From Escherichia coli (lineage in GTDB: Bacteria > Pseudomonadota > Gammaproteobacteria > Enterobacterales > Enterobacteriaceae): a DNA stretch of 64,000 nucleotides. The stretch is taken from the NCBI RefSeq assembly GCF_003790525.1, contig NZ_CP033635.1. One strand, given 5' to 3'. The notes beneath the pieces are model-generated. The model was not told the DNA's origin. It made no database searches and saw only the letters and a program-made list of their open reading frames with translations. Within the stretch, counting starts at the first letter, position 1; each line of letters opens with the position of its first letter. The translations under genes and the position numbers were made by a program. This document shows, piece after piece, positions 24,690 to 43,149 of the stretch.

Positions 24690-24731
24690 ATCCATCGCTG
24701 ATGGTGCAGAACTTTAGTACCCGATAAAAGC

Positions 24732-24760
24732 GGCTTCCTGACAGGAGGCCGTTTTGTTTT
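24732..24760 (+). terminator. intrinsic terminator after dps
   Basis: ggcttcc-tgaca-ggaggcc hairpin followed by GTTTTGTTTT. Confidence 0.65.
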
Positions 24761-24904
24761 GCAGCCCACCTCAACGCACTTATTTAGTGCATCCATCTGC
24801 TATCTCCAGCTGATTAAGTAAATTTTTTGTATCCATATCATCACACAATCGTTACATAAAGATTGTTTTTTCATCAGGTTTTACGCTAAATAATCACTGT
24901 GTTG

Positions 24905-24950
24905 AGTGCACAATTTTAGCGCACCAGTTTGGTGCCCCAGAATGGTGCAT
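24905..24950. promoter_or_regulatory. putative NtrC binding sites upstream of glnH
   Basis: GCACCAgttTGGTGC palindrome, close to the NtrC consensus TGCACCA-N3-TGGTGCA, with flanking half-sites. Confidence 0.6.
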
Positions 24951-25022
24951 CTTCAGGGTATTGCCCTATAAATCGTGCATCACGTTTTTACCGCATCTCG
25001 ATAAATCAATGAGTTGCAAAAC

Positions 25023-25038
25023 TGGCACGATTTTTTCA
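25023..25038 (+). promoter_or_regulatory. putative sigma-54 (-24/-12) promoter for glnH
   Basis: TGGCAC-N5-TTTCA about 55-70 nt upstream of the glnH ATG, downstream of the NtrC sites. Confidence 0.5.
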
Positions 25039-25077
25039 TATATGTGAATGTCACGCAGGGGATCGTCCCGTGGATAG

Positions 25078-25839
<762 letters not shown>

Positions 25840-25876
25840 TAACGCTACGCCTGTAAGGCGCACTGGCAGTTCCCTC

Positions 25877-25890
25877 TCCCCTCTGGGGAG
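25877..25890. repeat. left copy of island-flanking direct repeat (att core) tcccctctggggag
   Basis: Identical 14-mer recurs at 52665..52678. Confidence 0.75.
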
Positions 25891-26018
25891 GATCTATTGA
25901 TATCAACTGATTTCAACAGAGCTAACCCCTCCCCCTTTAACCCCCTTTGAAATAAGATATCATCAGAAATTCCTTTTCTCTGGGGGTCAATCATATTCCA
26001 TGAACATCAAGATGATTT

Positions 26019-26040
26019 TGGGGGCTATTCTGGGGGCTAC
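26019..26040 (+). repeat. tandem TGGGGGCTAT / TGGGGGCTAC repeats (candidate integrase arm-type sites), left end
   Basis: Two copies 12 bp apart just upstream of int; a related TGGGGGTCAA at 25981; the same pair recurs at the right end. Confidence 0.55.
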
Positions 26041-26056
26041 ATTTCAGGGGTAACTC

Positions 26057-27250
26057 ATGCCACTTACTGTTCGACAAATTGAGTCGGCTAAACCTGCTGA
26101 CAAGGATTACAAACTTTCTGACGGTCAGGGCCTTTATCTTCTTGTCAAAAAATCCGGTGCCCGTTACTGGAATCTGAAGTACCGGTTTGCCGGTAAGGAA
26201 AAGAAACTGGTGATTGGTGTCTATCCTGACATATCACTGGCTCAGGCTCGTCAGAAGCGGGATGAAGCACGTAAACTTCTGGCTGAAGGTAAAGATCCGT
26301 CGTATGAAAAACAGGCGCGAAAACTTGCCATCAGGGAAAGTATGGCCTGCACATTTCGCACCATTGCAGAGGAGCTGCTTACTCATATGGCACGTCGATG
26401 GACAACAGGTTACCAGGCAGACCAGCGTGCAAGACTTGAAAATCATGTTTTCCCTGCTCTTGGAAACCGTCCTGTGACCGGGATCCGCCCCATGGAAATA
26501 CTGAACGTCCTGAGGACTATAGAAGAACAGGGAAAACTTGAAGCACTGCGTAAAACACGCCAGCTCTGTGCGCAGGTTTTTGATTATGCCATAGCAACAG
26601 GGCGTGCAACCGTTAATCCGGCATCGACACTCAGCGGGGTACTGCTTCCTCCTGAAAAACAACAGCGCAGGACGCTTTCTGAAGAACAGATAGGAGCTTT
26701 CATGTATCAGATAACGGCTTCCGGAAATCTGATGTCGCTGGCAACGCGGATGCTGGTTCTGACCGCTGTTCGCACCGGAGAACTGCGACTGGCAACCTGG
26801 GACGAAATTAATTTCACGGAGGCCCTGTGGGTTATTCCGAAAGAAAGAATGAAAATGCGACGACCGCACGTTGTGCCGCTTTCACGGCAGGTACTGGCGT
26901 TACTGGAGGAGATAAAAACACGCACTGAATCGCGTAATTCCGCCTTTATTATTCCTGGTGCATTCAGAAAAGATCTCCCGCGAAACCGCAAGTGTATCAA
27001 TGAATTCCTTGAGCAGTCAGGCTGGCATGCCCTGACAACAGCCCACGGATTTCGTCATACCTTCAGCACCATTCTCCATGACCATGATTTCAGCTCAGCC
27101 TGGATTGAACTCCAGCTTGCTCATGTTGATAAAAACGTCATGCGTGGCACTTATAACCATGCGCAATATCTGGATGGACGTCGTGAAATGATGCAGTGGT
27201 ACGCTGATTACATTGATTCACTTATGGAGAAAAACGTAAAAACGAAATAA
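26057..27250 (+). CDS. tyrosine site-specific integrase, phage P4 / CP4-57 IntA type
   Basis: 397-aa ORF with P4-integrase-like N-terminus and C-terminal catalytic HGFRHTF ... HxxR ... Y motifs. Confidence 0.9.
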   Translation: MPLTVRQIESAKPADKDYKLSDGQGLYLLVKKSGARYWNLKYRFAGKEKKLVIGVYPDISLAQARQKRDEARKLLAEGKDPSYEKQARKLAIRESMACTFRTIAEELLTHMARRWTTGYQADQRARLENHVFPALGNRPVTGIRPMEILNVLRTIEEQGKLEALRKTRQLCAQVFDYAIATGRATVNPASTLSGVLLPPEKQQRRTLSEEQIGAFMYQITASGNLMSLATRMLVLTAVRTGELRLATWDEINFTEALWVIPKERMKMRRPHVVPLSRQVLALLEEIKTRTESRNSAFIIPGAFRKDLPRNRKCINEFLEQSGWHALTTAHGFRHTFSTILHDHDFSSAWIELQLAHVDKNVMRGTYNHAQYLDGRREMMQWYADYIDSLMEKNVKTK

Positions 27251-27258
27251 GCCATCAC

Positions 27259-27308
27259 CCCCACCAACCACAGCGGTTGGTGGGGAGTTAACTACCATTT
27301 GTATTTTT
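27259..27308 (+). terminator. possible terminator after int
   Basis: 11-bp stem ccccaccaacc/ggttggtgggg with 5-nt loop; the T-run lies about 18 nt downstream, so it is non-canonical. Confidence 0.4.
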
Positions 27309-27616
27309 TGATTTCTGCCTTCAGGCGACATACTCAATATCATCTGATGAGCGAAGATACCCCACCCAAAATGATGGTAGCTTCACATCGTCATTTTCAT
27401 ATAGCAGCACACTGCTGTTCTGACCTCGTAGTCACATTTCTACAGCATCATTACCAGTCAGGCTGATTGCTCCTCATTGAAAGAATGAATCCATGACTAA
27501 CACAAAAATAGCTCTGGCCGGCTGTTACCGGTGTGAGAAGAAACTTGATACAAACTGCCGTGGGCTTTATTCTTGGAGAACTATAAGTTTTTCCAGATTT
27601 ACAACAGATTCAGCAT

Positions 27617-28672
27617 ATGAACAGATTACGCTTTGAAGTGAAGAATAATCAGGGCTGCTTCATTTTCCCGGAAACCTGGTATGAATCACTACTGGAGAAG
27701 TTTAACGAACTGCTTGACTCCTTTGACGAGGATGAGATCAGCGACAGGTCTTATATCAATGCCCTGAAGCGTATCACACAACAGGAACCGGATTTTATTG
27801 ATGCGTATGCATACATGGCATATGCCTTTCTGGAGCAGGAGACACCGCGAAAAGCGCTGAATATTGCACTCAAAGGACTGGCGGCAGGTAACCGACTGAT
27901 ACCTGAAGGTTTCACCGGTGAAATCAGCTGGTTACATCCGGAAAACAGGCCCTTTCTGAATGCCCTTTACGCCGCCATCCTCGCGAATGTGCACCTGCAG
28001 CATCATCAGAATGCTGTCATGCTCATTGATAAAATTCTGGCTTACAATCCTTCAGATAATCCGGGAGCACGCTGGTTACTGGGACCGGAACTGTTGCGTT
28101 CTGGTGACCATGAACGGGCTCTCTGTGTTCTCCGGCAGTATGCAGATGAATTTTCGCCTTACTGGTATGAGCTTGGTCTTCTGCATTTTATTAATGGAGA
28201 GCCGGTGAAGGCAGCGACAGCTTTCCGGCGCGGCTTTGCAGAAAATACTTATATCGCGGAGATTCTATGCGGAAATCTGTACCCCTTCCCGCTTGCCCTT
28301 TGGCATGATTATTCATCTGAGCCGGATACAGCCAGACAGTATTATGAAACATTCTGCCCGTTATGGGGAAAATATCCCGAGGCATTGTTATTTGTTAACT
28401 GGCTCTACAACCAGTCTGGCGTACTGAGCGAACGGGCTGAATTCATGAAGTGTGCTGAAATGCTGTTAAGGGCAGATGATCAGGAAATGAATGAAAGCAT
28501 TTTTCAGCAGCGGGAGCTCTTACGGGAAAGAATTGATGATCGTCTTTCTGAGGAAATCGTTCAGAAATTACGGACATTGAACGGGGAGGAGATCTGGCCC
28601 TGGATGTTACCGTTTTCCGGAGAACTGATCCCCGCAGACATTTGCTTTCAGAACAGTCTGAAATATCAGTAA
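27617..28672 (+). CDS. hypothetical protein, TPR-like helical repeats by eye
   Basis: 351-aa ORF; repeated A/L/Y-rich helical segments; no family recognised. Confidence 0.6.
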   Translation: MNRLRFEVKNNQGCFIFPETWYESLLEKFNELLDSFDEDEISDRSYINALKRITQQEPDFIDAYAYMAYAFLEQETPRKALNIALKGLAAGNRLIPEGFTGEISWLHPENRPFLNALYAAILANVHLQHHQNAVMLIDKILAYNPSDNPGARWLLGPELLRSGDHERALCVLRQYADEFSPYWYELGLLHFINGEPVKAATAFRRGFAENTYIAEILCGNLYPFPLALWHDYSSEPDTARQYYETFCPLWGKYPEALLFVNWLYNQSGVLSERAEFMKCAEMLLRADDQEMNESIFQQRELLRERIDDRLSEEIVQKLRTLNGEEIWPWMLPFSGELIPADICFQNSLKYQ

Positions 28673-28773
28673 TATCTGCACCAGGATGCCATTCCGGGGT
28701 CAGTAAGGATCTTCCCCCTGACCTGGACAAATGTAATGAAACTCAGCTAAGCCCCAGAAGAGCAGGCATATAG

Positions 28774-29154
28774 TCAACCGAGGTCGCTGCAATAAACCAT
28801 CGCGCTTTGATTCCCCCGATGAAGAGGTGACTGGCAGCGACTTCCTGAGCGACGACTTGTCTTTCCATCAATAGCGACTACCTGAGAAGATAAAACAGGA
28901 AGGACTTCTGAACCCCATCGCCGGAACGCAGCTTCAAACTGCTCAGGGACAATCAGCCCAAAAAGACGGGCGAATGTATCATGGGAAGGTATGCCATTTT
29001 TTAGAGGTAAAAAACTGGCGGAGCCACTCAATGCGTTGCCTGCCCAGAGCTCAATTTCCTGAAAATTATCCGCACCGACCAGCACACCACAAACGGCAAT
29101 GGTCAATGTATCAACCAGAGTGTGCCTGACTTGTCCAGGGCTGACAGGGATCAT
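28774..29154 (-). pseudogene. ISAs1-family (H-repeat type) transposase N-terminal fragment
   Basis: DTLTIAVCGVLVGADNFQEIELWAGN...GIPSHDTFARLF...VAIDGKT resembles the N-terminus of ISAs1/YhhI-type transposases; only ~126 codons, C-terminal DDE region absent. Confidence 0.6.
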
Positions 29155-29299
29155 GTATTGAGATGAATATATCGGTAACCGGCGGTATATGAGACATAAT
29201 ATATCCCTTTGATAAAAAAGGTTATGTTGACATATTTATCCTGCATGTCACGTATCATTATTTTTCATGCGATTGCCCTGCGGTTACCACCGCTCACAG

Positions 29300-29404
29300 T
29301 TAGTAAAGGACTGGGCGGAAGTGGTCAATATAAGGTTGCATTACCTTCCTCCTTATAGTCCGAATCTGAATCCGATTGAACGGATGTGGAAAAATGCTGC
29401 TTAA
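29300..29404 (+). pseudogene. IS630-family transposase C-terminal remnant
   Basis: Reading frame ending ...YLPPYSPNLNPIERMWKNAA* matches the conserved DDE-proximal YSP(D/E)LNPIE motif of IS630/Tc1 transposases; no upstream ORF. Confidence 0.55.
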
Positions 29405-29716
29405 TAGTATTGATGTTCATCTTTATGCCTCTAAAAGAAAGCATAAGATCACAACAGGCTCAGCAGGTCAATCACTCTATTTTTGTTCAAAAAACGTTCA
29501 TGATCTTGCCCTACCCAATTTTGTGGGTAAGGATATGCGATGAAATTCTCCTTGCAGTTTAATACAACCTTTCCATATTAAGCGGCAGTATTACCTGCCA
29601 GTCAGGATAATTTTACACCTAATGTTAGTTAAAATTTGTGCAACTTGAAACAATAATACTACAGTATCCACTATCGTCAGCACACCTCAAATACTATTTT
29701 TTATGAAACGTTTATT

Positions 29717-30373
29717 TTATAAATCATTATCAATCAAACTCAGGAATGTATCTCTGGCATAATTACCAACGATGTTGGTTGTTATCGCATCAAGACTACC
29801 ACCAACGATTCCTCCTACAACAGGAACAAACTTTGACATATTAATAACACCAGTAGCACCTGTTTTTGTAAGCAGTCTGAAACCGACTGCCTTATTTATC
29901 TTTACAATAATATCTTTACTAATACATCTAATTGCATTTGTTGTCAACTTTTGTCCTATCTGAATTCCTGCTTCCTTCAAAATATCTTTCGCAGCATTAC
30001 CTACAAGACAGGTATAAACAATAGTTCTGACTTTATCATCACGAATATCCTGGCCACACATGATCGCAATAGATGCAACCATCCTGACCTGAATGAAAAG
30101 GACACTTGAAATATTGGTCGGTATAGTTACTGGTAATGTAATAATTCCTCCAAGACCAGTAAGAAAACCTGATGTGGCTGACTTGGTATTTTGCCATCGA
30201 ATAAGGCTATTTATCTGTTCTTTTAAACTACTACCCGTTTTCAGATAACTTTCCGCAAGACTATGTGCCGTATCAATTCCTGGGATACCAATACCATCGA
30301 TGGATTTTTCATAAGCGTAATCCAGAAATTTTATGATTTTTGATGGCGTGAGAATATTTTCATTATCAGTCAT
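29717..30373 (-). CDS. hypothetical protein, possibly EcsC-family; glycine-rich hydrophobic segments
   Basis: ORF trimmed to first internal ATG (MTDNENIL); motifs TSGFLTGLGGIITLPVTIP and VPVVGGIVGG; AT-rich by eye; family assignment from memory only. Confidence 0.55.
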   Translation of the reverse strand: MTDNENILTPSKIIKFLDYAYEKSIDGIGIPGIDTAHSLAESYLKTGSSLKEQINSLIRWQNTKSATSGFLTGLGGIITLPVTIPTNISSVLFIQVRMVASIAIMCGQDIRDDKVRTIVYTCLVGNAAKDILKEAGIQIGQKLTTNAIRCISKDIIVKINKAVGFRLLTKTGATGVINMSKFVPVVGGIVGGSLDAITTNIVGNYARDTFLSLIDNDL

Positions 30374-30464
30374 ACAACAAAACACCTAAAAATTTCACGA
30401 TCACTTTCTAAAAACTATCTCCGACAGATATCGGAACACCAGTATTATCACCAATTAAATAATA

Positions 30465-30656
30465 TTATTTTTTGAGAAACAATTGTATTGCTCTGGCAAA
30501 AAGATTTTCTGTAATTGTAGCCTTACGTTTATAAATAACTTTCTCTCCACACACAGGACATTCATAAAATCCTGCTGTACAATTCATATGAATAATAGTT
30601 TTACTCCATTGACAATTTGTACAGATAAATGTAATGGGTGGACAGGGAAAAATCAT
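30465..30656 (-). CDS. small zinc-ribbon protein (two Cys pairs)
   Basis: ORF trimmed to internal ATG (MIFPCPPITFICTNCQ...ECPVCGEK); CxxC-type pairs; sits between the 117-aa and EcsC-like genes on the same strand. Confidence 0.45.
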   Translation of the reverse strand: MIFPCPPITFICTNCQWSKTIIHMNCTAGFYECPVCGEKVIYKRKATITENLFARAIQLFLKK

Positions 30657-30746
30657 TGGCTCACACTCTCGATATATAAATAACACTTACAGGGACATGT
30701 AAATATTTTCGATTTATCCCTATAAAAATAACTTCACCTCCAGTAA

Positions 30747-31100
30747 TCAATTCAGTTCTGTAAGACGATCGATTATTTTACGTAGTTCATCTGCAGAATC
30801 ACATGTATCCAGTGAAATTTTTATTCTAAAATTCTTTAACCAATTAGCAGCCTCCTGATCTTCACGCCATAAACGCTCCCCGCTCCAATCCCCCCTAAAA
30901 CATAGAGCAGCAATAGCCAATCCTCTGCATGCTGGCCGATTATGCTCAGATGTATTATTTTGGTTATAAAAATCGTTAATTCTTTCTACCGGAGATGATT
31001 TTATTTTATCCCACACATTGAAATTAGCTTTTTTCATCGTTTCAGCAGCAGCATTAGAAGCAAGCTTACCGAATCCCATTATAGCATCCCAAAATCCCAT
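30747..31100 (-). CDS. hypothetical protein (117 aa)
   Basis: ATG start with AAGGTG RBS; no recognisable family; AT-rich. Confidence 0.5.
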   Translation of the reverse strand: MGFWDAIMGFGKLASNAAAETMKKANFNVWDKIKSSPVERINDFYNQNNTSEHNRPACRGLAIAALCFRGDWSGERLWREDQEAANWLKNFRIKISLDTCDSADELRKIIDRLTELN

Positions 31101-31312
31101 ATATCACCTTATGCTATATAATATCTAAATGAGTATCTAATCTTTTAGAACCACTATTTGGACAATGGTTTTACGCCACTTACATCTGGTACAAATGAAT
31201 GTAACCGGGGGCTGAGGAAGTGCCATGAAGGTACGTGTCTGTTGTATTAAACTATCAAATCAGACCACACGCTGCGATTTTGAATTTAACAACGTGTAGT
31301 CAGATATTACAT

Positions 31313-32062
31313 TCAGAAGCTGTATGTAGCACCTAACGTAAATTCGTTACTTCTGACATCAACAGAGGATTTATATGTATCCTGCCCGTCTTCATACGTC
31401 AGGGTTGAATCACCTGCATCAAGATAGCGATAAGCAAGGTCAAGACTGAAATCCGGGGTGACCTCATATTTCACGCCAACACCAAGGCTCCATGCGAAAT
31501 TGTTATCATATCCCGAGTAATGTAATGAAGAAGCATCACTTACTTCACCTGATTTATTCCAGGAGGTATCGGTGTATGTTGCCTTATGATGTACCCGCGC
31601 ATAACCCAGTCCGGCTGATACCCACGGAGTGAAAGCACTGCTGTTTCTGAAATCATAATACGTGTTCACCATCAGGGTATTCACGCTGAGCCTGTTTTGT
31701 GTGTCTTCCTTCCAACCATTATCTCCAGACGGGGACTCCCATGTATCCAGTGGATAGCGGGAATTCGCAGAGCCGCGACCATAGAATTCAACTTCCGTGC
31801 GTACAGGGACATTGTAGTGCTGATAAAAGTCGTATCCCACCGCAAGGCCAGCACCAAAAACCGTATCGCTCTTGTCACCGCCTTTATACTTATAAACATC
31901 ATCCCCAAAGTCCTGACTAAAGCGCTGATTATCCTGAGTGATAACAGATGCACCAGCCTTACCCGTGATATAGAAACCGGTTTTATCCGCATCTGCCAGC
32001 GTCAGCGTTGAAAACGTACCGGTAAGCGCAGCTACCGCAGTGAGTGCCAGTAACTTTTTCAC
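31313..32062 (-). CDS. outer-membrane beta-barrel protein, OmpA/opacity-like; possibly Hra/Tia/Hek adhesin-invasin family
   Basis: Signal peptide MKKLLALTAVAALTGTFSTLTLA, alternating amphipathic strands, C-terminal ...GATYSF with terminal aromatic; GTG start; ~249 aa as for Tia/Hek-type proteins. Confidence 0.6.
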   Translation of the reverse strand: MKKLLALTAVAALTGTFSTLTLADADKTGFYITGKAGASVITQDNQRFSQDFGDDVYKYKGGDKSDTVFGAGLAVGYDFYQHYNVPVRTEVEFYGRGSANSRYPLDTWESPSGDNGWKEDTQNRLSVNTLMVNTYYDFRNSSAFTPWVSAGLGYARVHHKATYTDTSWNKSGEVSDASSLHYSGYDNNFAWSLGVGVKYEVTPDFSLDLAYRYLDAGDSTLTYEDGQDTYKSSVDVRSNEFTLGATYSF

Positions 32063-32377
32063 AATCCACCTCTCCTGATGTTTCCTTCAGACATATGAAT
32101 TTGTCCAATTTTAAGACGGATTTCTCATTGGTAAAATGAATTGTACAGATCGTATCGATCGACAAAGTCGATCGTTAAGCAGAAAAAAGATTTATCGTCA
32201 GCGAAGATTTGTTTATGGAAATGACTGAAAAAACGGGTTAAAAAACAGACTGTTCTGTCCATGTGAAACGGGAAGTGACGGGATAAGACGTTATGTGAGG
32301 ATTGTTACGGGAAATGCTGTTTTACGTTGTTAAAATGTAACTCCGCAATGAAACTATCCCCTGTGGAGGTCCTGTAA

Positions 32378-32731
32378 ATGAACAAAGCACTCTCTTCCAT
32401 TCTGCTCATCTTCGGTATCTGTGCATCATCACTGGCCGCTGAAAAAAACAGAACCGTCAGTTTTCCACGATGTGAAGTACAGGAAGCATCAGCTGTTGCA
32501 GCCAGCGTCAAACGGGACTATCTCCAGAAACAGGTATTTCAGTGGAAAGATGATCAGGAAATTCTCGGTCAGCAGCGTCCCGTTGTCTGGGTGAATCTTC
32601 GTGAGCCGGTAAATAAAGGTGATAATGTCATCACAGTGCATCTCACTGCCCGTGGAAAGAAAGCAGATATTCAGTATCGTGTGCGCGTTGACTGTAAGAA
32701 CGGAAGTGCTACCTGGCAACGCCAGGGATGA
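32378..32731 (+). CDS. small secreted hypothetical protein
   Basis: 117-aa ORF with N-terminal signal peptide (ILLIFGICASSLAA). Confidence 0.45.
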   Translation: MNKALSSILLIFGICASSLAAEKNRTVSFPRCEVQEASAVAASVKRDYLQKQVFQWKDDQEILGQQRPVVWVNLREPVNKGDNVITVHLTARGKKADIQYRVRVDCKNGSATWQRQG

Positions 32732-32777
32732 ACGGGTGAAGTTGAATACAGAGCCCGAACGAACGGGCTCTCCATAC

Positions 32778-33350
32778 TCATCGTATATAACTGAATGCGG
32801 TGATGACGTGTTTCACCCCCGCCACGCGACTGGCGATATCAGCAGCAGCCTGTCCTTCCTTCTCTGTAACTCTCCCCATAAGAAAGACTTCACCATTCTC
32901 CGTCAGTACCTTTACATCTGACAGTTTCACCCTGCTGCTCTTCAGTAACTGTGCCCGGATTTTTGTGGTCAGCCACGCATCAGTAGCTGTTTTATCAGCC
33001 CGAAGTGGTTTTCCCGTCCTTATTTCATTCCATACCTGCACAGTCCCCTCAACACCATCTGCAATCTGACGGGCTTTTTCACCTGCACTACGGTCTGGTG
33101 CCTGCCCTGTCAGCAGTACAGTGCCCTGGTATGCTGTGACGATGATTCGCGCATCCCCCCTGAGTTGTGAGTCCTTCGACAGCGCACGGCTGACCCTTGC
33201 TTCCAGAATTTCATCATCAATCTGCGTTCCCGCACTTCGGGGGTCCACTGACACTTTAGTACCCACAGCAGCCGTACCGACCAGCGCAGCGGCAACACAA
33301 CCCTGTAACAGCAACAGAGTCGAAAGAAAAGGCAGAAACCAGCGTTGCAT
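32778..33350 (-). CDS. BON-domain lipoprotein, DolP (YraP) paralog
   Basis: Trimmed to MQRWFLPFLSTLLLLQGC lipobox start with GGAGG RBS; sequence closely parallels DolP/YraP (two BON domains, ...ASRVAGVKHVITAFSYIR). Confidence 0.75.
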   Translation of the reverse strand: MQRWFLPFLSTLLLLQGCVAAALVGTAAVGTKVSVDPRSAGTQIDDEILEARVSRALSKDSQLRGDARIIVTAYQGTVLLTGQAPDRSAGEKARQIADGVEGTVQVWNEIRTGKPLRADKTATDAWLTTKIRAQLLKSSRVKLSDVKVLTENGEVFLMGRVTEKEGQAAADIASRVAGVKHVITAFSYIR

Positions 33351-33673
33351 GGCAGAATCCTCCACGGTCTGATATCCGGAATTTCGCAGTATGACGGCAG
33401 GAATCAGCCATCACAGATACCACAAGCTTCAGAGAGTAACGAAAACGTTAAAGGAAACGGAAGTGCCTGAATGTAAAGAACGGGGAACCACACAGGGTAT
33501 GGACAAACATAATAACAATAACAGGATGAAAATATTGAATAAAAAATAAAAACCGAGACATCATCATTTGCAGTAATAGCCACCTCCTTACCGAAAAGTG
33601 TGAGTTGCCGGACATTTTTTAAACGCATGATAAGGTCTGATGATACAGTCACCCTGCAACCAGGAGGTACATC

Positions 33674-33967
33674 ATGCGTATACGTGTTTTTGGTTACCGG
33701 CACTGCCCTTCAGTCCATCGCATCATGCATCACGCAACGCGAATCCCCGATGAAATGGAACCGGATGTTGTGTTTATTGATGTCGCGAAGCACAGTGTGA
33801 CGCTGCGGGATATGGCTGACCGTGCAGGCTGCCCGGTGGATAACTTCCCGTGTGTGTTTGTTGATGATGTCTATCTGGAGCCCCTCCACCAGAACCGGGC
33901 AAACCGCACTTTACATACTGCTGAATATTTATTACCGGATATGGACAATCGCTTTCATTCGGGATAA
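33674..33967 (+). CDS. hypothetical protein, possibly thioredoxin-fold / glutaredoxin-like
   Basis: 97-aa ORF with strong AGGAGG RBS; MRIRVFGYRHCPSV... layout resembles a glutaredoxin-type N-terminus with single Cys; weak. Confidence 0.4.
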   Translation: MRIRVFGYRHCPSVHRIMHHATRIPDEMEPDVVFIDVAKHSVTLRDMADRAGCPVDNFPCVFVDDVYLEPLHQNRANRTLHTAEYLLPDMDNRFHSG

Positions 33968-34091
33968 AAAATACTGCGCGTTCCTGGTTTATTTTGCGTT
34001 GCTGTCATGACGTGTTTGCCTTCATTGCCGGGATCGCGCACTTTTTGTTATAACTCCCCGGAGGACACTGTCTGTAATCAGATGGAAACCT

Positions 34092-34526
34092 TTATCTCAG
34101 TGATGTCCTGGTTAATACAGAATACTGCCCCGGACCAAGTAACATAATGGCAATCCCCCCCATGAAATACAGCATTTCATTTTCAAGCCCCCACGCCCCT
34201 ACTTCAGTCAGTGTGAAAAACTTCCCTGTTCCGACCAGAAGCGTGGCAACAATCAGTGTCAGCGCATAAATCAGAGCAGCAGGTCTGGTAAATATCCCAA
34301 GAATGATAAGTACCGGAGCCACGATTTCACCAATATACACACCATAGGCAATAAATCCTGGCAAACCAGCATCCTGCAACATTGATATAATCCAGTTGAC
34401 ACCGTGCTCTATTTTGGCCACACCATGGAACAGCATCAATATACCAAATGTCAGTCTCAGCAACAGAAGACCTGTATCCGGGTAGTCTGTCAGTCTGGTA
34501 AAGAACATATTTATTCTTGCTGGCAT
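34092..34526 (-). CDS. DoxX-family inner membrane protein
   Basis: 144-aa ORF, 4 hydrophobic helices, DoxX-like pattern. Confidence 0.65.
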   Translation of the reverse strand: MPARINMFFTRLTDYPDTGLLLLRLTFGILMLFHGVAKIEHGVNWIISMLQDAGLPGFIAYGVYIGEIVAPVLIILGIFTRPAALIYALTLIVATLLVGTGKFFTLTEVGAWGLENEMLYFMGGIAIMLLGPGQYSVLTRTSLR

Positions 34527-35126
34527 AAAAAACCTCGTTAAACGATAACAGATAATGAAGAAACTATTATCGTTGAGTCGACACCATCAATTGACCAGAT
34601 ATTTCTGACATTCATAATCAAAAAATTTGACAAAACTGTAAACGTTCGCTTTTTATACCAACACAGAATCCACTCAGTCACACAACCTGTATGCGTCATT
34701 TCCTGCTGTTATTTAAAAAATTTCTCACGTAACAGACATTTCAAAAAAACACTAAAAAATACCAGAACAATTAAGATAATATTACGATCAAATAAGTAAA
34801 AGTCTTTTGTCTGTTATTTTTATTTTCTGTGATTACTGTCATTCTTTCACCACTTTAATTAACATCGCATAATAATCCGGGAGGTGGATAAGATATGAAA
34901 ATTAACTATCCTTTACTGGCGCTGGCGTTGAATTATTACCTGTAGAGCTCACTCCGGATGAGCAGAAAGAACCGATGGTGGCTCTTACTCCACTTTTATC
35001 CACTCCTTCACACAGCACTGTCAGTGCAGGTGCCTGAAAGATCTCGTTCCGTCACGGTAAAATGACGCTGGAAAATTCTTCACCAGAACTGCTCACTGTG
35101 TTAATTCGTGAACTGACCTGGGGGGA

Positions 35127-35285
35127 ATGCGTGGTACCCTGCTGTACGGACTAATCGGAACCTGTCGGTTGAACGGTATCGATCCGGAAGCGTATCTGCG
35201 CCATATCCTGAACGTTCTACCGGAATGGCCTTCCTGCATGGTTGATGAACTCCTGCCATGGAATATGGTGCTCCCATTGGGGTAA
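35127..35285 (+). pseudogene. IS66-family transposase C-terminal remnant
   Basis: MRGTLLYGLIGTCRLNGIDPEAYLRHILNVLPEWPSCMVDELLPWN matches the conserved C-terminal tail of IS66-family TnpC; upstream frames are disrupted. Confidence 0.6.
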
Positions 35286-35411
35286 GCGTCAATACGGCGT
35301 TCGCTTAACTTAACACTTACTTTCAAAGCCTGATATCTGTCCTACGCTTTTCCTCAATACCACATCGCCAGCAGGAAACAACCTAATGCCTGTGTTGGGG
35401 TCTGAATTACT

Positions 35412-35430
35412 AATGATAATCATTTGCATT
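35412..35430. promoter_or_regulatory. Fur box upstream of the sitA-like gene
   Basis: AATGATAATCATTTGCATT, close to the Fur consensus GATAATGATAATCATTATC. Confidence 0.65.
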
Positions 35431-35433
35431 GTG

Positions 35434-35471
35434 TATAGCTTATGCTATAAAACATAGCCGTTGCTATGTTT
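35434..35471. promoter_or_regulatory. tandem MntR operators upstream of the sitA-like gene
   Basis: AAACATAGC-cgtt-GCTATGTTT, a perfect match to the MntR box architecture, preceded by TATAGC-ttat-GCTATA. Confidence 0.7.
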
Positions 35472-35503
35472 GTTCTAATTTTACTCACTATAGGTACTGA
35501 ATT

Positions 35504-36418
35504 ATGCACTCAATAAAAAAAGTAACCATGCTCCTGGGGTGCCTCGCCCTCACCTGCTCGATAGCATTTCAGGCGAGTGCAACTGAAAAATTCAAGGTCA
35601 TTACAACATTTACCATCATCGCAGATATGGCCAAAAACGTGGCTGGAGATGCTGCAGAAGTCTCATCCATAACCAGGCCCGGTGCAGAAATTCATGAGTA
35701 TCAGCCTACCCCTGGCGATATTAAACGTGCGCAGGGGGCACAACTGATTCTCGCCAACGGTATGAATCTGGAATTGTGGTTCCAGCGCTTTTACCAGCAT
35801 CTCAGTGGGGTTCCAGAAGTGATTGTCTCTTCGGGTGTGACGCCAGTAGGGATCACCGAAGGCCCCTACGAGGGAAAACCTAACCCTCATGCCTGGATGT
35901 CGCCAGATAATGCTTTGATTTACGTCGATAATATTCGTGATGCGTTGATAAAATACGATCCGGCAAATGCAAAAACATACCAACGTAATGCCGATACTTA
36001 TAAAGCCAAGATTACCCAAACCCTTGCCCCCCTGCGTAAGCAGATTGCTGAACTCCCTGAGAATAAAAGATGGATGGTCACCAGTGAAGGGGCTTTTTCT
36101 TATCTCGCACGCGATTTGGGGCTAAAAGAGCTTTATCTGTGGCCGATAAATGCCGATCAACAAGGAACACCCCAGCAGGTACGTAAAGTGGTTGATATAG
36201 TGAAGAAAAATAATATCCCAGCGGTATTTAGTGAGAGTACGGTTTCCGATAAACCAGCGCGTCAGGTTGCGCGTGAAACCGGCGCACACTACGGCGGTGT
36301 GCTCTATGTCGATTCCCTGAGCACAGAAAACGGCCCGGTACCTACGTATATCGACCTTCTGAAGGTTACTACCAGTACGCTGGTGCAGGGAATTAAAGCC
36401 GGGAAAAGGGAGAAGTAA
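35504..36418 (+). CDS. sitA: metal (Mn/Fe) ABC transporter periplasmic binding protein, SitA/YfeA/MntC (TroA) family
   Basis: 304-aa ORF with signal peptide and TroA-like metal-binding fold; Fur and MntR boxes upstream as in sitABCD/yfeABCD operons. Confidence 0.75.
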   Translation: MHSIKKVTMLLGCLALTCSIAFQASATEKFKVITTFTIIADMAKNVAGDAAEVSSITRPGAEIHEYQPTPGDIKRAQGAQLILANGMNLELWFQRFYQHLSGVPEVIVSSGVTPVGITEGPYEGKPNPHAWMSPDNALIYVDNIRDALIKYDPANAKTYQRNADTYKAKITQTLAPLRKQIAELPENKRWMVTSEGAFSYLARDLGLKELYLWPINADQQGTPQQVRKVVDIVKKNNIPAVFSESTVSDKPARQVARETGAHYGGVLYVDSLSTENGPVPTYIDLLKVTTSTLVQGIKAGKREK

Positions 36419-36552
36419 TGATGCAATCTGCGGGTATTGTCGTTAATGGCGTTACTGTCACCTGGCGAAACGGGCAGAAAGCACTGCGCGATGCATCCTT
36501 CACAGTACCAGGCGGATCTATTGCCGCTCTGCTTGGGGTAAACGGTTCCGGT
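36418..36552 (+). pseudogene. truncated metal ABC transporter ATPase (sitB-like), first ~45 codons only
   Basis: ATGA overlap with sitA stop; N-terminus typical of an ABC ATPase (VTVTWRNGQKALRDASFTVPGGSIAALLGVNGSG) breaks inside Walker A (GSGE in place of GSGKST); downstream sequence is unrelated. Confidence 0.7.
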
Positions 36553-36900
36553 GAAATCGTCTTGACACGTTTCTGGGCTCGTCATCAGCGGTTGTTGCGA
36601 ATGATCGCCGCCCTGCGATGGTTGATTTATTTTATTGCGCCCCGGCGTCTGCCTTGCCAGGTACCGGAGGCGGGCTCTGAAGGACTGAGTAGGGTGAGCG
36701 CGTCAGGCCGCGAAGTACTGACACGGGAGTTTGTGGCAGGCAGTGAAGTCCTGACCAGGGTAAGGGAGGCGCTGACGTGCAGGTCCTGACTGTCAGCCAG
36801 GCGCATGGTGACTGACTTTCTCAATAACCCGCTGTCAGGCGCTCAACGCCCGACAGCAGGCCATGGCCCGGTGTGCAAAGACCTGACGGCAGGTGTTGTG

Positions 36901-37221
36901 TCACCCGGAGAAGGTAAATCCCTCAAGAGGCAGCAGCTCAGCCAGTCGGTCCTCAGGCCACTCCGGCAGGCGCGTCAGTACGTCCGTCAGCCAGGCATGT
37001 GGCTCCAGACCATTACGCTTTGCTGTTTCCAGAAGACTCATTATCTGTGCCGCGCGTTTGCCGGCCATCAGCGAGCCTGCGAATAACCATGCCTTTCGCC
37101 CCAGCGTGACCGGGCGGATGGCTCGTTCGCAGATATTGTTGTCCGGTGGCACAGAGCCATCATCCAGAAAACGGCACAGCTCATCAGGTCGTTTCAGGAT
37201 ATAGCTGATAGCCTTATGCAA
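36901..37221 (-). pseudogene. IS66-family transposase C-terminal fragment
   Basis: NNICERAIRPVTLGRKAWLFAGS...LLETAKRNGLEPHAWLTDVLTRLPEWP matches the conserved IS66 TnpC C-terminal region; N-terminal two-thirds missing. Confidence 0.65.
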
Positions 37222-37694
37222 TGGACTGTCTGGCGGACCGCCTGCTCCTGCTCTTGACGGTTTTTTGCCTTGTATATCAGGTTATAGACGAGAAGATTGT
37301 CGTCTTCGTGGTTTCCGTCAGGAAAAGAGAATGCTCAAAAGTGTATAGTAAGGCGGTCAAACGCATTCGCTGAAATAAGATGTGTCACTTCAGCTTTGCG
37401 TTAACACGACTATTTTTCATCACTCAAGCGGTAGTCCCGGTGACTCACACGTATACGAGTCACCGCTTCAGATTTGAGTATCCGAATTTAAATCAGGGAC
37501 ACAATGGAAGAAGCGAACACTTTCGCATCCTCTTCCTGCAATTCGCAGACTGTCACTCTGCGTCCAGTTCCCTCTTTCCTCAGCAGGTACCAACGCCAGG
37601 CTCCCGACAAAGGTTGACCTGAAACGACCAAATACACAGGAAACAAAATACTGTCAGACAGAACGAGGCGTGCTATACATCACGCCTCAATGCT

Positions 37695-40473: not shown

Positions 40474-41211
40474 TCATGTACAGCGCTGTACCGGGCAATG
40501 GGTAATACCGGTCACAACCGGTAACCCCAGAGACAATGCAACTGTTTTTAACGCAATATACTGGCCGGATGTATCACCCCGGGCAGCCTGAAAACACCTT
40601 TCCACCCGGCATTGTCCGTCAGCACTTATCACCCGCCATGTCTGTTGCAATAAATCCACCCGTTGCGAACATTCTTCATCAACCGTGGCACTGACCCGTG
40701 GATGGCAAATGCTCGTCTGGCTGAGCAGCAACAGGCATCGCATTGTTGCTCCTCCATGTTGTTCCCGCAACCAGCGTAATACCACCGGTGGTGCTGGACT
40801 GGCCGTGTGATTACGTTCAGTAATACGCTCGTGCACCTGTCGGTAAAAGGAAGTACAGAATGCATGAATCTGTTGTCCGTTGATGTTTCCTTCTGCCGAA
40901 TGGAGTGTGAAGTGGACGGCCAGCAGACGCGGCCAGTGATCCACCGCCTGCTGAATAAAACGCCGGATTTCCACCGGCTCTGAAAGTACGGTTTCGGTTA
41001 TTTGCACGATTTGATCCCCTTGAATGTTGCTGAACCGGTGTCGGTACGCAGGAAAGCACGCCGAGACCGGTACGATGCCTGTTACAGCGAAGAACGAGGA
41101 ATGACAGACGGGGGCAGCAGGTCGCCAGCACCAGGGACAGGGCTGATTTCCACAATACCAACGCTGGTATTTTGCACATTGCCAGCGTACCGGCATTACA
41201 ACACGTTTCAT
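40474..41211 (-). CDS. hypothetical protein, weakly YagK/YfjJ-like (third paralog)
   Basis: 259-aa ORF trimmed to Met 15; central segment RLLAVHFTLHSAEG... resembles the RVDLRFP-type region of the two adjacent YagK/YfjJ-like proteins; competing frames exist. Confidence 0.4.
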   Translation of the reverse strand: MKRVVMPVRWQCAKYQRWYCGNQPCPWCWRPAAPVCHSSFFAVTGIVPVSACFPAYRHRFSNIQGDQIVQITETVLSEPVEIRRFIQQAVDHWPRLLAVHFTLHSAEGNINGQQIHAFCTSFYRQVHERITERNHTASPAPPVVLRWLREQHGGATMRCLLLLSQTSICHPRVSATVDEECSQRVDLLQQTWRVISADGQCRVERCFQAARGDTSGQYIALKTVALSLGLPVVTGITHCPVQRCT

Positions 41212-41432
41212 GCTGCTGCCCCTCGTGATGCCTCGATTCGTTGCTGCATCCACTGCTCCACTTCACTTTTGTACCAGCGGCTGCTGCGCCCCAGTTTGAT
41301 GGGTTTAGGGAAATGGCCTTCACTGATCAGCTTGTAAAACCATTTGTCGGTCATACCAGTGAAGCTGGTGATGTAGTTCATGTCGATCAGGGGATCGTCG
41401 GCACGCAGCAATACGCTGTCGTGACCTGTCAT
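41208..41432 (-). CDS. alpA: AlpA-family (P4 Vis-like) transcriptional regulator
   Basis: Small ORF with FTGMTDKWFYKLISEGHFPKPIKLGRSSRWYKSEVEQWM, the AlpA/Vis HTH signature; start codon uncertain (Met 5 or Met 22). Confidence 0.7.
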   Translation of the reverse strand: MTGHDSVLLRADDPLIDMNYITSFTGMTDKWFYKLISEGHFPKPIKLGRSSRWYKSEVEQWMQQRIEASRGAAA

Positions 41433-41512
41433 TGAGGTCAACATGGTCAGAATGTCCTCTGTGAGATTTATGAATGTTGGGCAAATGCGGGTGAATCTGC
41501 TGAGCTGAGCTT

Positions 41513-42115
41513 TCAGAGCTGGCCTGCTACGGGATACCAGGGATTACCGGCGAGGTAACGGGCTTCCGGATCGCGCACACCACGACGATCGCGGGCGAAA
41601 TCACTGAACGCCCATATCAGCTCTTTGAGTCTCTCTTCGCAGTCCGGTGAACAACTGTCCAGCACCACATCCCGGGTTATCTGTTTCTGGTACGGTGCCG
41701 CTTCACCCGGTGAGGCGAAGCCCAGCACGTTGCTCCAGGCATCCAGAATCAGCCGATCCAGTTCAGGGCCGTCGAAATACTCCTGCCTGACGCACAGCAC
41801 CACGTGGTATTCCGGCTTTTCAGGATGACGTGTCAGGAGCCAGCAGAGGTCACGTCCGGGGGTTGCATTCATCAGGTCACTGACGGTTTCAATAAAGGCC
41901 ATACCGAACCAGGTCCTGCGGCTGCTGAAGGTATTATCGGGTTCCCACGGCAGACGAAGCAGGATACGTCGTATCCGGGAGCCGGACTGCTCACGCAGCG
42001 CACGGTCAAGAACGCCAATAACTTTGTTCTGATACGAGGGCCAGAAGGGTGCCATGCTGTCGTCGAAATAAGAGAAAGTATTCACAGGATATGCTCCGTT
42101 ATGCGCAGCCCACAA
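41513..42115 (-). CDS. YagK/YfjJ-family protein (inovirus Gp2-like domain)
   Basis: 200-aa ORF, TTG start; island-associated family typically next to alpA. Confidence 0.6.
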   Translation of the reverse strand: MWAAHNGAYPVNTFSYFDDSMAPFWPSYQNKVIGVLDRALREQSGSRIRRILLRLPWEPDNTFSSRRTWFGMAFIETVSDLMNATPGRDLCWLLTRHPEKPEYHVVLCVRQEYFDGPELDRLILDAWSNVLGFASPGEAAPYQKQITRDVVLDSCSPDCEERLKELIWAFSDFARDRRGVRDPEARYLAGNPWYPVAGQL

Positions 42116-42417
42116 CGCGTCCTGCCCGGGGATGGATGGGCTGACGGGTTACAGGCTGCGGATGAGGTTGATGGAACAGGTGAAGAACCGACGCTGAGCG
42201 GGAATATCAGGGAAGAACATTCAGGGTGAATGAACTCCGTTGACTTCGGTTCACATCATTAAGCAGGGCGGTAAGGTTTTACCGACAGATTGTTTCCGGG
42301 TGCGGAAGCAGATACCGCTGCTGACTTCATGACGGGTTATCAGAATACGGGATAAGGGCATTGGCTGACTCTCTTACCGTGGCATAAGTTCAGGTACCGG
42401 ATACCGTTTTACCGACC

Positions 42418-43149
42418 TCACCTGCCATCCAGCAAACGCCCCGGCCCACGGCTGCAACCATAATTACGCTGACCGGAACCATTATGCTGCTTCGTTTTAT
42501 TTTTCACGAGATAACTGGCTCTGTTCCTGGCTTTCTGCATCGCTGCCACATCACCACGCTTGATCCAGAGAACAGCGGCTTCACCCGGCTTTTTTTCTGA
42601 AGCCTTCCTGGTATCAGAACATCCACCCGACAAAGGCGTGTCATCGGAAGAAGGGCGAGCATCAGACGATGCTGGTTTACGAAAAGGCTTCCACCTGGAA
42701 AAATGGACCAGGCCATCGCCTTGCCAGGGCTCAAGATGCAGAGCGCTGCACCATGCCTCCTGGATCATCGCCGCCAGCGAAGACGGTTCGCTGAAATCCC
42801 CGAGCGAGCACCAGGTATCTTTGTTGAGCAGCAATATCACGTGATAATGTTTCCTGTTTTCTTCCTCTCCGAACTCCCGGCACCAGAAATAACGCAGGCT
42901 GGTTGCATGCACACGCTGACTGGCACGTCGCTTATGCTGCTGGTAAGCCTGGATTTTGGCTTTCAGGGATTCGAAAAAACGAGAAATCACCGCTGAATCC
43001 GGATCGGGATCCATGATGGTGACAGGCATATACTCAGGGAAACGTAAATCCACCCGGATTAACGAGACGGCACGGTGCTGCGACAGGGCACTGTCGAGAA
43101 GGCTGTCAAAACGGGATAACCAGTAAGCATTGTGTATTGGTTGATTCAT
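42418..43149 (-). CDS. YagK/YfjJ-family protein (inovirus Gp2-like domain)
   Basis: 243-aa ORF; ...SLIRVDLRFPEY... motif; paralog of 41513..42115. Confidence 0.65.
   Translation of the reverse strand: MNQPIHNAYWLSRFDSLLDSALSQHRAVSLIRVDLRFPEYMPVTIMDPDPDSAVISRFFESLKAKIQAYQQHKRRASQRVHATSLRYFWCREFGEEENRKHYHVILLLNKDTWCSLGDFSEPSSLAAMIQEAWCSALHLEPWQGDGLVHFSRWKPFRKPASSDARPSSDDTPLSGGCSDTRKASEKKPGEAAVLWIKRGDVAAMQKARNRASYLVKNKTKQHNGSGQRNYGCSRGPGRLLDGR

Follow-up and report, generated by a model that had tools for sequence, protein, structure and literature searches.

Among Hra1, Hra2, Tia, Hek and Hes, outer-membrane proteins of Escherichia coli, identity is 65-90%, and variation lies mainly in the surface loops (PMC5539235). 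The gene for one of them, tia, is carried together with leoA on a heterogeneous pathogenicity island, PAI tia (PMC7545054). Two envelope-related housekeeping proteins also serve as references here. In the lipoprotein DolP (YraP), the functional residues have been mapped, and W127 and L137 are loss-of-function positions in the phospholipid-binding helix of the second BON domain, BON2 (PMC7806268). YebF is released to the medium in a manner that depends on the porins OmpF and OmpC (PMC8619257). Here, we analyzed five consecutive open reading frames (ORFs) at positions 31313-34526 of a 64,000-nucleotide stretch of E. coli DNA (assembly GCF_003790525.1, contig NZ_CP033635.1; in the following, the window). 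On strands that alternate -,+,-,+,-, they encode an outer-membrane protein (OMP) of the Tia/Hra type, a YebF-family protein (YebF'), a DolP paralogue (DolP'), a glutaredoxin-like protein (Grx') and a DoxX-family protein. We consider it likely that the five form a linked block of monocistronic accessory genes, which is cargo of an integrase-tetratricopeptide repeat (TPR) island of the PAI tia family inserted beside lptG in chicken E. coli, and that each gene functions as its family does.

RESULTS

Five genes in an integrase-bearing genomic island

An earlier note on this DNA, made from the sequence alone, had delimited and named the five genes. All five ORFs are present, and the same five are called in the RefSeq annotation of an identical record, the chromosome of chicken E. 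coli CM2 (NZ_CP158308.1), to which the 7-kb stretch around the genes is 100% identical. Family models and alignments bore out all five identifications. The description of all products as exported, membrane or redox-fold proteins held for the OMP, YebF' and DolP', which have signal sequences (with the lipobox LLQGC in DolP'), and for DoxX, which has membrane spans; Grx' is cytoplasmic and scores below the glutaredoxin cutoffs.

In the CM2 record, the gene order is pepA-lptF-lptG, a tyrosine integrase gene, a TPR protein gene, insertion sequence (IS) fragments, an EcsC-family gene, a hypothetical gene and the five genes. The island starts with the integrase gene immediately after lptG (window 24700-28700), and the integrase end lies ~4 kb from the OMP gene. 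On the right, the five genes are followed by an IS remnant, sitA, a truncated sitB and further IS debris. The shared accessory block extends over ~3.4 kb. Homology to other copies starts at window position 31156, and the DNA to the left of this position (the EcsC-family gene and a 117-aa ORF) is unrelated and low in GC. The five genes have similar GC contents of 45-53% versus 36-38% for the EcsC-family and hypothetical genes, a shift that is consistent with a boundary at 31156.

The integrase-TPR context and the empty phage searches led us to read the region as island cargo, as the earlier note had done; it is not a prophage. Specifically, PHROGs gave no meaningful match, and the only matches in a phage collection were to housekeeping dolP at 65%, in records that are very small or mislabelled. 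A plasmid origin was likewise rejected: no true plasmid carried the block, and the "plasmid" matches to dolP and yebF were housekeeping loci in mis-assigned chromosomal records. ARAGORN detected no tRNA gene in the whole window. An insertion at leuX, which had initially been assumed, was dropped on this result and on the position of the integrase gene directly after lptG.

The alternating strands (two divergent pairs plus one gene) make a single operon impossible, and the five genes are predicted to be separate transcription units (Table 1). When the three promoter-bearing intergenic regions were searched for a shared PhoP, Fur, CpxR, OxyR, RcsB or sigma-E-like motif, only weak matches with three mismatches were obtained; a scan for sigma-70 promoters and terminators gave no signal above shuffle level, and no Rfam element was found in 28500-37500 at E<=0.1. 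The inverted repeat between the convergent yebF' and dolP' genes is without a T-run and may be a two-way transcript end. In comparisons with diverged homologues, the ratio of nonsynonymous to synonymous substitution rates (dN/dS) was 0.12-0.30 for each of the five genes, with dS near saturation in the most distant comparisons. This range indicates purifying selection and, thus, real, selected genes rather than chance ORFs.

Table 1. Positions in the window of the five genes and associated features
Feature	Coordinates	Strand	Description
Left edge of shared block	31156..31312		Homology to the second CM2 copy and the GF60 copy begins at 31156
OMP gene	31313-32062	-	249 aa; Hra/Tia-family outer-membrane beta-barrel adhesin/invasin allele
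OMP-yebF' divergent intergenic region	32063..32377		38% GC
yebF' gene	32378-32731	+	117 aa; YebF-family small secreted protein
Inverted repeat	32750..32771		AGAGCCCG-aacgaa-CGGGCTCT, in the 46-bp gap between convergent yebF' and dolP'; putative
dolP' gene	32778-33350	-	190 aa from the annotated ATG; 195 aa from an upstream GTG at 33365
dolP'-grx' divergent intergenic region	33351..33673		IS21 inserted here in the GF60 copy
grx' gene	33674-33967	+	97 aa; cytoplasmic GrxA-like protein
DoxX gene	34092-34526	-	144 aa; DoxX-family inner-membrane protein

The block moves as one recombining unit between related islands

Among 5,426 complete E. coli genomes, the five-gene arrangement was present in 16, two of which carry an IS21 insertion. 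dolP' was found in 19 and yebF' in 18 of these genomes, and the presence pattern is nested. The reduced forms comprise LH50-c, which is without an intact OMP gene; one locus in GF60 without the DoxX gene; Ch1 with only yebF'-dolP'; and GF4 with only dolP'. The exact proteins are far more common in draft assemblies, where they occur on hundreds to at least 999 contigs (at least 999 for DoxX). The 19 genomes with dolP' derive from chicken or chicken meat (13), black kites (2), a human (1), cheese (1) and unstated sources (2), giving avian sources for 15 of the 17 genomes with a stated source, which looks like a strong link to birds (raw counts that ignore kinship and database composition).

CM2 contains a second copy (NZ_CP158308.1 5392436-5400457), which by pairwise mapping is 97% identical to window 31156-33799 and comprises OMP-yebF'-dolP' and the first ~125 bp of grx'. 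This copy lies directly behind diverged leoA-leoB-leoC genes and is followed by an extra sodC; its yebF' has an internal stop, and its OMP gene is intact. The element that carries it abuts replication genes of an SPI-7-type island (dnaB-PI, ParA and ParB). In GF60, the order is leoABC-OMP-yebF'-dolP'-IS21-grx'. CFSAN061770 has the arrangement of the window with IS21 within the OMP gene and a frameshifted DoxX gene, and to the right of the block an annotated sitABCD set, in which sitD has an internal stop. LH50-c and Ch1 retain a diverged remnant of the OMP N terminus (74% nucleotide identity) that abuts yebF'-dolP', in LH50-c together with grx'-doxX; in these two islands, the sequence changes to a different left-hand module at a breakpoint at ~32241 in the OMP-yebF' intergenic region. 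There, an additional lpxM, a cptA gene with a frameshift (phosphoethanolamine [PEtN] transferase), a family-4 glycosyltransferase (GT4) gene and a polysaccharide deacetylase gene occupy the slot to the left of yebF'. This gene set may resemble the shf-capU-virK-msbB2 loci of Shigella and enteroaggregative E. coli plasmids.

Four left-hand contexts were observed, i.e., leoABC, EcsC, the lpxM-cptA-GT4-deacetylase module and the IS21-interrupted form, and OMP-yebF'-dolP'-grx' recurs across different island contexts with a common left boundary at window 31156. The linkage is confined to one recombining lineage with 94-100% identity. The block moves as one recombining unit between related islands, and deletions and IS elements wear it away bit by bit; yebF'-dolP' is the part that persists best. 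Related islands occupy several insertion sites, namely lptG (the window), zntA (HCM-27C-1), ulaE (CFSAN061770) and tRNA-Sec (sequence type 131 [ST131]).

In ~800 of the 5,426 genomes, a Tia-family gene occurs with none of the other four. In ST131 and many others, the classical order is selC-integrase-TPR-PEtN transferase-leoABC-tia, without the four companion genes. More generally, diverged relatives of each gene, wherever found, occur without the others. The earlier note had named independent distribution across genomes as the outcome that would speak against a joint block, and the answer is divided: the genes are clearly linked in this island family and were transferred jointly into several contexts and chromosomal sites (next to lptG, zntA and ulaE), and their diverged relatives, where found, occur singly. 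Because the linkage was found inside a single recombining lineage at 94-100% identity, it does not represent independent evidence for joint function.

The OMP is a Tia-like allele of the Hra family

The NCBI pipeline names the product of the first gene only "outer membrane protein," and Pfam assigns it the generic OMP_b-brl domain (E=5e-19). The protein has a hydrophobic N-terminal stretch (residues 4-22) followed by the signal peptide end ...TLA/DA, and it ends in an aromatic residue (...TYSF). Over the full length, it is 76-77% identical to two large clusters named "invasion outer membrane protein Tia" and, at 100% coverage, 57-58% identical to a cluster that holds "adhesin/virulence factor Hek." A search of 5.8 billion proteins placed it in a dense E. 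coli family. These data bear out the proposed membership in the Tia/Hek/Hra family: the identity is in the family range, the protein is a barrel with a signal peptide and a C-terminal aromatic residue, and the gene lies in an island near an integrase gene. Grouping with OmpW or OmpX, which the earlier note had considered as the competing outcome, was not observed, and the match to OmpW was partial and weak. The allele is mosaic in that its first two-thirds are Tia-like, while its last ~50 aa are closer to other alleles of the family. Based on its family, the protein is predicted to be an eight-stranded barrel of the Tia/Hra type that would mediate adhesion, aggregation or invasion via variable surface loops.

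DolP' belongs to a lineage of DolP paralogues on mobile elements

DolP' is 62% identical to K-12 DolP, scored 279 bits against the NCBIfam DolP model NF008247 (cutoff 184), and matched the DolP structure PDB 7A2D with E=1e-62. As in K-12 DolP, an N-terminal signal sequence, the lipobox LLQGC and two BON domains are present. Of the functional residues of DolP, Y75, G83, W127, T130, K131, R133, Q135, L137 and G160 are conserved. The changed positions are G120D, E121K, S123A, N124T, T126A and S134A, of which the first five fall at the start (the N-terminal half) of the lipid-binding helix.

Housekeeping DolP proteins share 84-94% identity within the Enterobacteriaceae and 73-81% between Enterobacteriaceae and Yersiniaceae. 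By comparison, identity of DolP' to the housekeeping proteins is no more than 58-63%, and DolP' is equidistant from all Enterobacterales orthologues; no donor species was found, with 58-63% identity to every Enterobacterales orthologue compared. DolP' is a paralogue, and not the orthologue, of DolP, in line with the reading of the earlier note.

The nearest relatives of DolP' (65-68% identity) are other accessory DolP proteins, encoded in a cargo slot of integrative and conjugative elements (ICEs) of the SPI-7/PFGI-1 class at tRNA-Phe, beside a DUF465 gene and before UvrD-TraI-integrase. The ICE-borne paralogue is 71-73% identical to K-12 DolP and has matches in 26 of the 5,426 complete genomes. 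Since the nearest relatives are accessory ICE copies and the housekeeping DolPs are more distant, the mobile-element paralogues constitute an old, separate lineage, on which nothing was found in the literature searched. The ICE-borne gene lies near TacAT, a YadA-like adhesin gene and, in some copies, a CBASS-like nucleotidyltransferase/ThiF/JAB/SAVED set. DolP' is predicted to be an outer-membrane lipoprotein. As it retains the phospholipid-binding determinants W127 and L137, it probably supplements DolP in outer-membrane integrity and support of the beta-barrel assembly machinery (BAM).

YebF' is a strongly diverged YebF

YebF' is 51% identical to K-12 YebF and matches Pfam YebF (PF13995) with E=8e-27. 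It scored just above the cutoff of the NCBIfam model YebF_not_Cmi (115.2 bits, cutoff 110) and under that of PRK13680 (120.5 bits, cutoff 147). The possibility that it is a colicin M immunity protein was rejected based on the YebF_not_Cmi score and on the structure matches (E=1e-27 for YebF, PDB 2LQV, versus E=0.01 for the immunity protein). A hydrophobic N terminus (residues 3-22) provides the signal peptide, and the two cysteines of the mature protein (C32 and C106) correspond to those of K-12 YebF. Among 1.84 billion representative proteins, the whole YebF family comprises 30 clusters, none of which is intermediate between the cluster of YebF' (88%) and housekeeping YebF (54%); accordingly, no donor species was found in this set. 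Judging from its family, YebF' would be Sec-exported and disulfide-bonded and would probably be released via porins like YebF. Prehna et al. are said to have reported in 2012 that OmpX is also involved in YebF export.

Grx' is predicted to have a truncated glutaredoxin-like fold

Grx' is without a signal sequence and is therefore predicted to be cytoplasmic rather than exported. No Pfam match was obtained, and the scores were far under the GrxA cutoffs (NF008401, 32 versus 84 bits; TIGR02183, 26.5 versus 106.5). Identity to E. coli Grx1 (GrxA) is 29% over the first 65 residues, and the match to its structure (PDB 1EGO, E=2e-5) covers residues 1-68. The active site reads CPSV instead of CPYC, i.e., the first Cys-Pro is kept and the second active-site cysteine is absent. 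The cis-Pro (P59) is retained; the GG motif and the last, C-terminal helix are absent, and the alignment to GrxA stops at residue ~70. In an AlphaFold (AF2) model, for which the input alignment had six rows with GrxA itself as one of them, the confidence score (pLDDT) of the core was mostly 79-92 (65 for residues 21-30), and the tail was disordered from residue 71. The modelled core (residues 1-70) has the order strand-helix-strand-helix-strand-strand, which is that of glutaredoxins, and the best Foldseek matches were 1GRX and 1EGO (TM 0.57-0.69). "Glutaredoxin-like fold" is an apt description of Grx', and "glutaredoxin" is not. Grx' would be a cytoplasmic, monothiol, C-terminally truncated protein with a glutaredoxin fold.

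The Grx' family is tiny (14 clusters, confined to E. coli islands). Its closest relatives have 83 aa and 68% identity, and their gene lies between iha, which encodes a siderophore receptor/adhesin, and degenerate ICE genes (TIGR03757/TIGR03756), a locus that was matched in 85 of the complete E. coli genomes. When grx' of the window is compared with the 83-aa alleles of CFSAN061770, of GF60 and of the iha locus, a 1-nt deletion is apparent between 33884 and 33885. Owing to the resulting frameshift, 26 unrelated residues stand in place of the conserved tail (...PPEPGKPHFTYC). We rejected the idea that Grx' is a frameshifted GrxA pseudogene: the 70-residue core has an omega of 0.12 between 68%-identical homologues, and no frame encodes the C-terminal glutaredoxin helix.

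DoxX has solitary relatives in other genera

The DoxX protein matches Pfam PF07681 with 70.4 bits (cutoff 23.6), has several hydrophobic spans and is predicted to be a small inner-membrane protein of the DoxX family. In a scan of one genome per species, its closest relatives (65-75% identity) were encoded on chromosomes of Hafnia, Rahnella, Rouxiella, Serratia, Pectobacterium, Budvicia and related genera. None of 62 such loci had an OMP, YebF', DolP' or Grx' homologue within 6 kb. The neighbours are genes for a LysR regulator, a metallo-beta-lactamase (MBL)-fold protein and a peptide transporter in Hafnia and for an aldo-keto reductase, a TetR regulator and CysA in Pectobacterium. In these two loci, which were read, no thioredoxin-fold neighbour was present, and no conserved partner gene was seen in the loci examined.

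Other features of the island

The low-GC segment at window 29717-31227 (36-38% GC) contains the EcsC-family gene, the 117-aa ORF and a 73-aa Cys-rich ORF (CxxC...CPxC). A 24-residue fragment that resembles this Cys-rich ORF is repeated at ~31156-31227, at the left edge of the block. At window 35504-36564, sitA is intact and sitB ends after ~49 codons, cut by IS66-family debris; hence, the Mn/Fe transporter operon is non-functional in this copy. Window 40631-42512, located farther along in the island, contains a gene for a YadA-like trimeric autotransporter and a gene for a sigma-factor-like helix-turn-helix protein. This YadA-like gene parallels the one beside the ICE-borne DolP paralogues.

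DISCUSSION

Our data are best explained by a variant of PAI tia that carries virulence and envelope genes as cargo, each transcribed on its own. The genes are kept together by linkage and are moved by recombination between related islands. Four observations weigh against this reading. The persistence of the linkage over several contexts could reflect co-selection for joint function, and not hitch-hiking. Further envelope genes are present in the sister islands (PEtN transferase, lpxM, GT4, deacetylase, sodC and sitABCD), which hints at a common envelope/stress theme. Some copies are decaying (the frameshifted Grx' tail in the window, the yebF' stop in the second CM2 copy and the DoxX frameshift in CFSAN061770), so not every gene need be functional in every strain. 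Finally, dS is near saturation in the most distant comparisons. The theme that the earlier note had seen in these genes is real as far as gene content goes; its "envelope-remodelling module" is a putative mechanism, suggested by gene content and linkage.

In a stronger version of that idea, the genes form a co-adapted envelope module in which DolP' buffers BAM or outer-membrane stress caused by acquired barrel adhesins and YebF' is a secreted partner tied to the divergent barrel. In at least three island contexts, OMP, yebF' and dolP' are neighbours; in LH50-c and Ch1, what is left of a diverged OMP gene still borders yebF'; W127 and L137 are retained in DolP'; and two of three ICE variants examined have a YadA-like outer-membrane adhesin near the DolP paralogue; moreover, the export of YebF is porin dependent (PMC8619257). 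However, all this adjacency falls within one recombining lineage and is not independent evidence. No promoter motif is shared, tia occurs in ~800 genomes without yebF' or dolP', some ICE-borne DolP copies have no adhesin nearby, and the second CM2 copy combines a yebF' pseudogene with an intact OMP gene. Altogether, we regard such a module as unlikely. In the same vein, the OMP-yebF'-dolP' trio could be an adhesin-plus-helper cassette, in which the old, element-borne DolP lineage and a private YebF would protect BAM and outer-membrane biogenesis while an acquired barrel adhesin (the Tia-like OMP or YadA-like) is expressed, a proposal that we consider rather improbable. Far less credible is a membrane thiol or quinone stress pair of DoxX and the thioredoxin-fold protein, along the lines of the envelope thiol stress modules named in the earlier note. 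It is true that grx' and the DoxX gene converge across a gap of 124 bp and that truncated copies have lost both, that the DoxX family includes redox-linked members, and that the PHROGs match is annotated "quinone oxidoreductase TQO." Yet the 62 DoxX relatives in other species have none of Grx', DolP', YebF' or the OMP within 6 kb, and LysR and MBL-fold genes (Hafnia) or TetR and aldo-keto reductase genes (Pectobacterium) adjoin DoxX instead; conversely, the 68%-identical Grx' relatives lie beside iha and ICE remnants without DoxX, and GF60 retains grx' without DoxX. Moreover, Grx' is without the second active-site cysteine, the GG motif and the last helix and scores far under the GrxA cutoffs. 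The pairing is not conserved across the lineages examined, and we consider it very unlikely.

At the other extreme, the five genes could be non-functional debris, i.e., hitch-hiking remnants of degraded ICEs and islands in neutral decay. The many flanking IS fragments, the truncated sitB, the frameshifted Grx' tail, the pseudogenized yebF' or DoxX genes and IS21 insertions in other copies, and the presence of DolP' and Grx' relatives in cargo slots of SPI-7/PFGI-1-class ICEs all fit this picture. It is difficult to reconcile with the dN/dS values, which are 0.12-0.30 for each of the five genes (for grx', this includes the core), with five reading frames that are all open in the window, with the conservation of key DolP residues and of the YebF cysteines, and with the occurrence of the exact proteins in public assemblies, where they are encoded on hundreds to at least 999 contigs. 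We therefore give this explanation little credence and favor individually selected cargo genes held together by linkage.

With this block, the Hra adhesin family gains a distinct Tia-like allele. The block also shows that tia pathogenicity island variants harbour their own, strongly diverged versions of DolP and YebF, which are normally encoded by single-copy housekeeping genes. DolP', in which the key lipid-binding residues are kept and half of the binding helix is changed, is a natural variant that can be used to probe DolP specificity. Given the avian bias of the carriers, the block could mark poultry-adapted lineages.

Compared with known systems, the OMP resembles the Hra family in size, signal peptide and C-terminal Phe, and it aligns end to end with Tia- and Hek-labelled proteins; the differences are clustered in a few stretches, like the loop variation reported for the family. 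YebF' is like YebF (2LQV) in its family models, signal peptide and two mature cysteines; unlike housekeeping YebF, it is a lone lineage, and its gene is not beside yebG or purT. Similarly, K-12 dolP lies in lpoA-yraN-diaA-dolP, whereas dolP' lies in an island and is convergent with yebF'. The DoxX gene is not an E. coli core gene and has chromosomal relatives in the Hafniaceae, Yersiniaceae, Pectobacteriaceae and Budviciaceae. The likeness to PAI tia is twofold: the OMP gene lies a few kb from a tyrosine integrase gene, and the second CM2 copy directly adjoins leoABC, an arrangement also seen for tia at selC in ST131 and other strains. Unlike PAI tia of enterotoxigenic E. coli H10407, the window has EcsC and hypothetical genes, and not leoABC, as left neighbours, and the island adjoins lptG, without any tRNA gene in the window; yebF', dolP', grx' and doxX are, in turn, missing from the classical tia locus at selC that was examined. 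The block is ordinary mosaic island cargo and not a new kind of system. What is new is a Tia-like allele in an adhesin family that was already known, along with paralogues of known proteins that have been annotated automatically but not described, on an island of a familiar kind.

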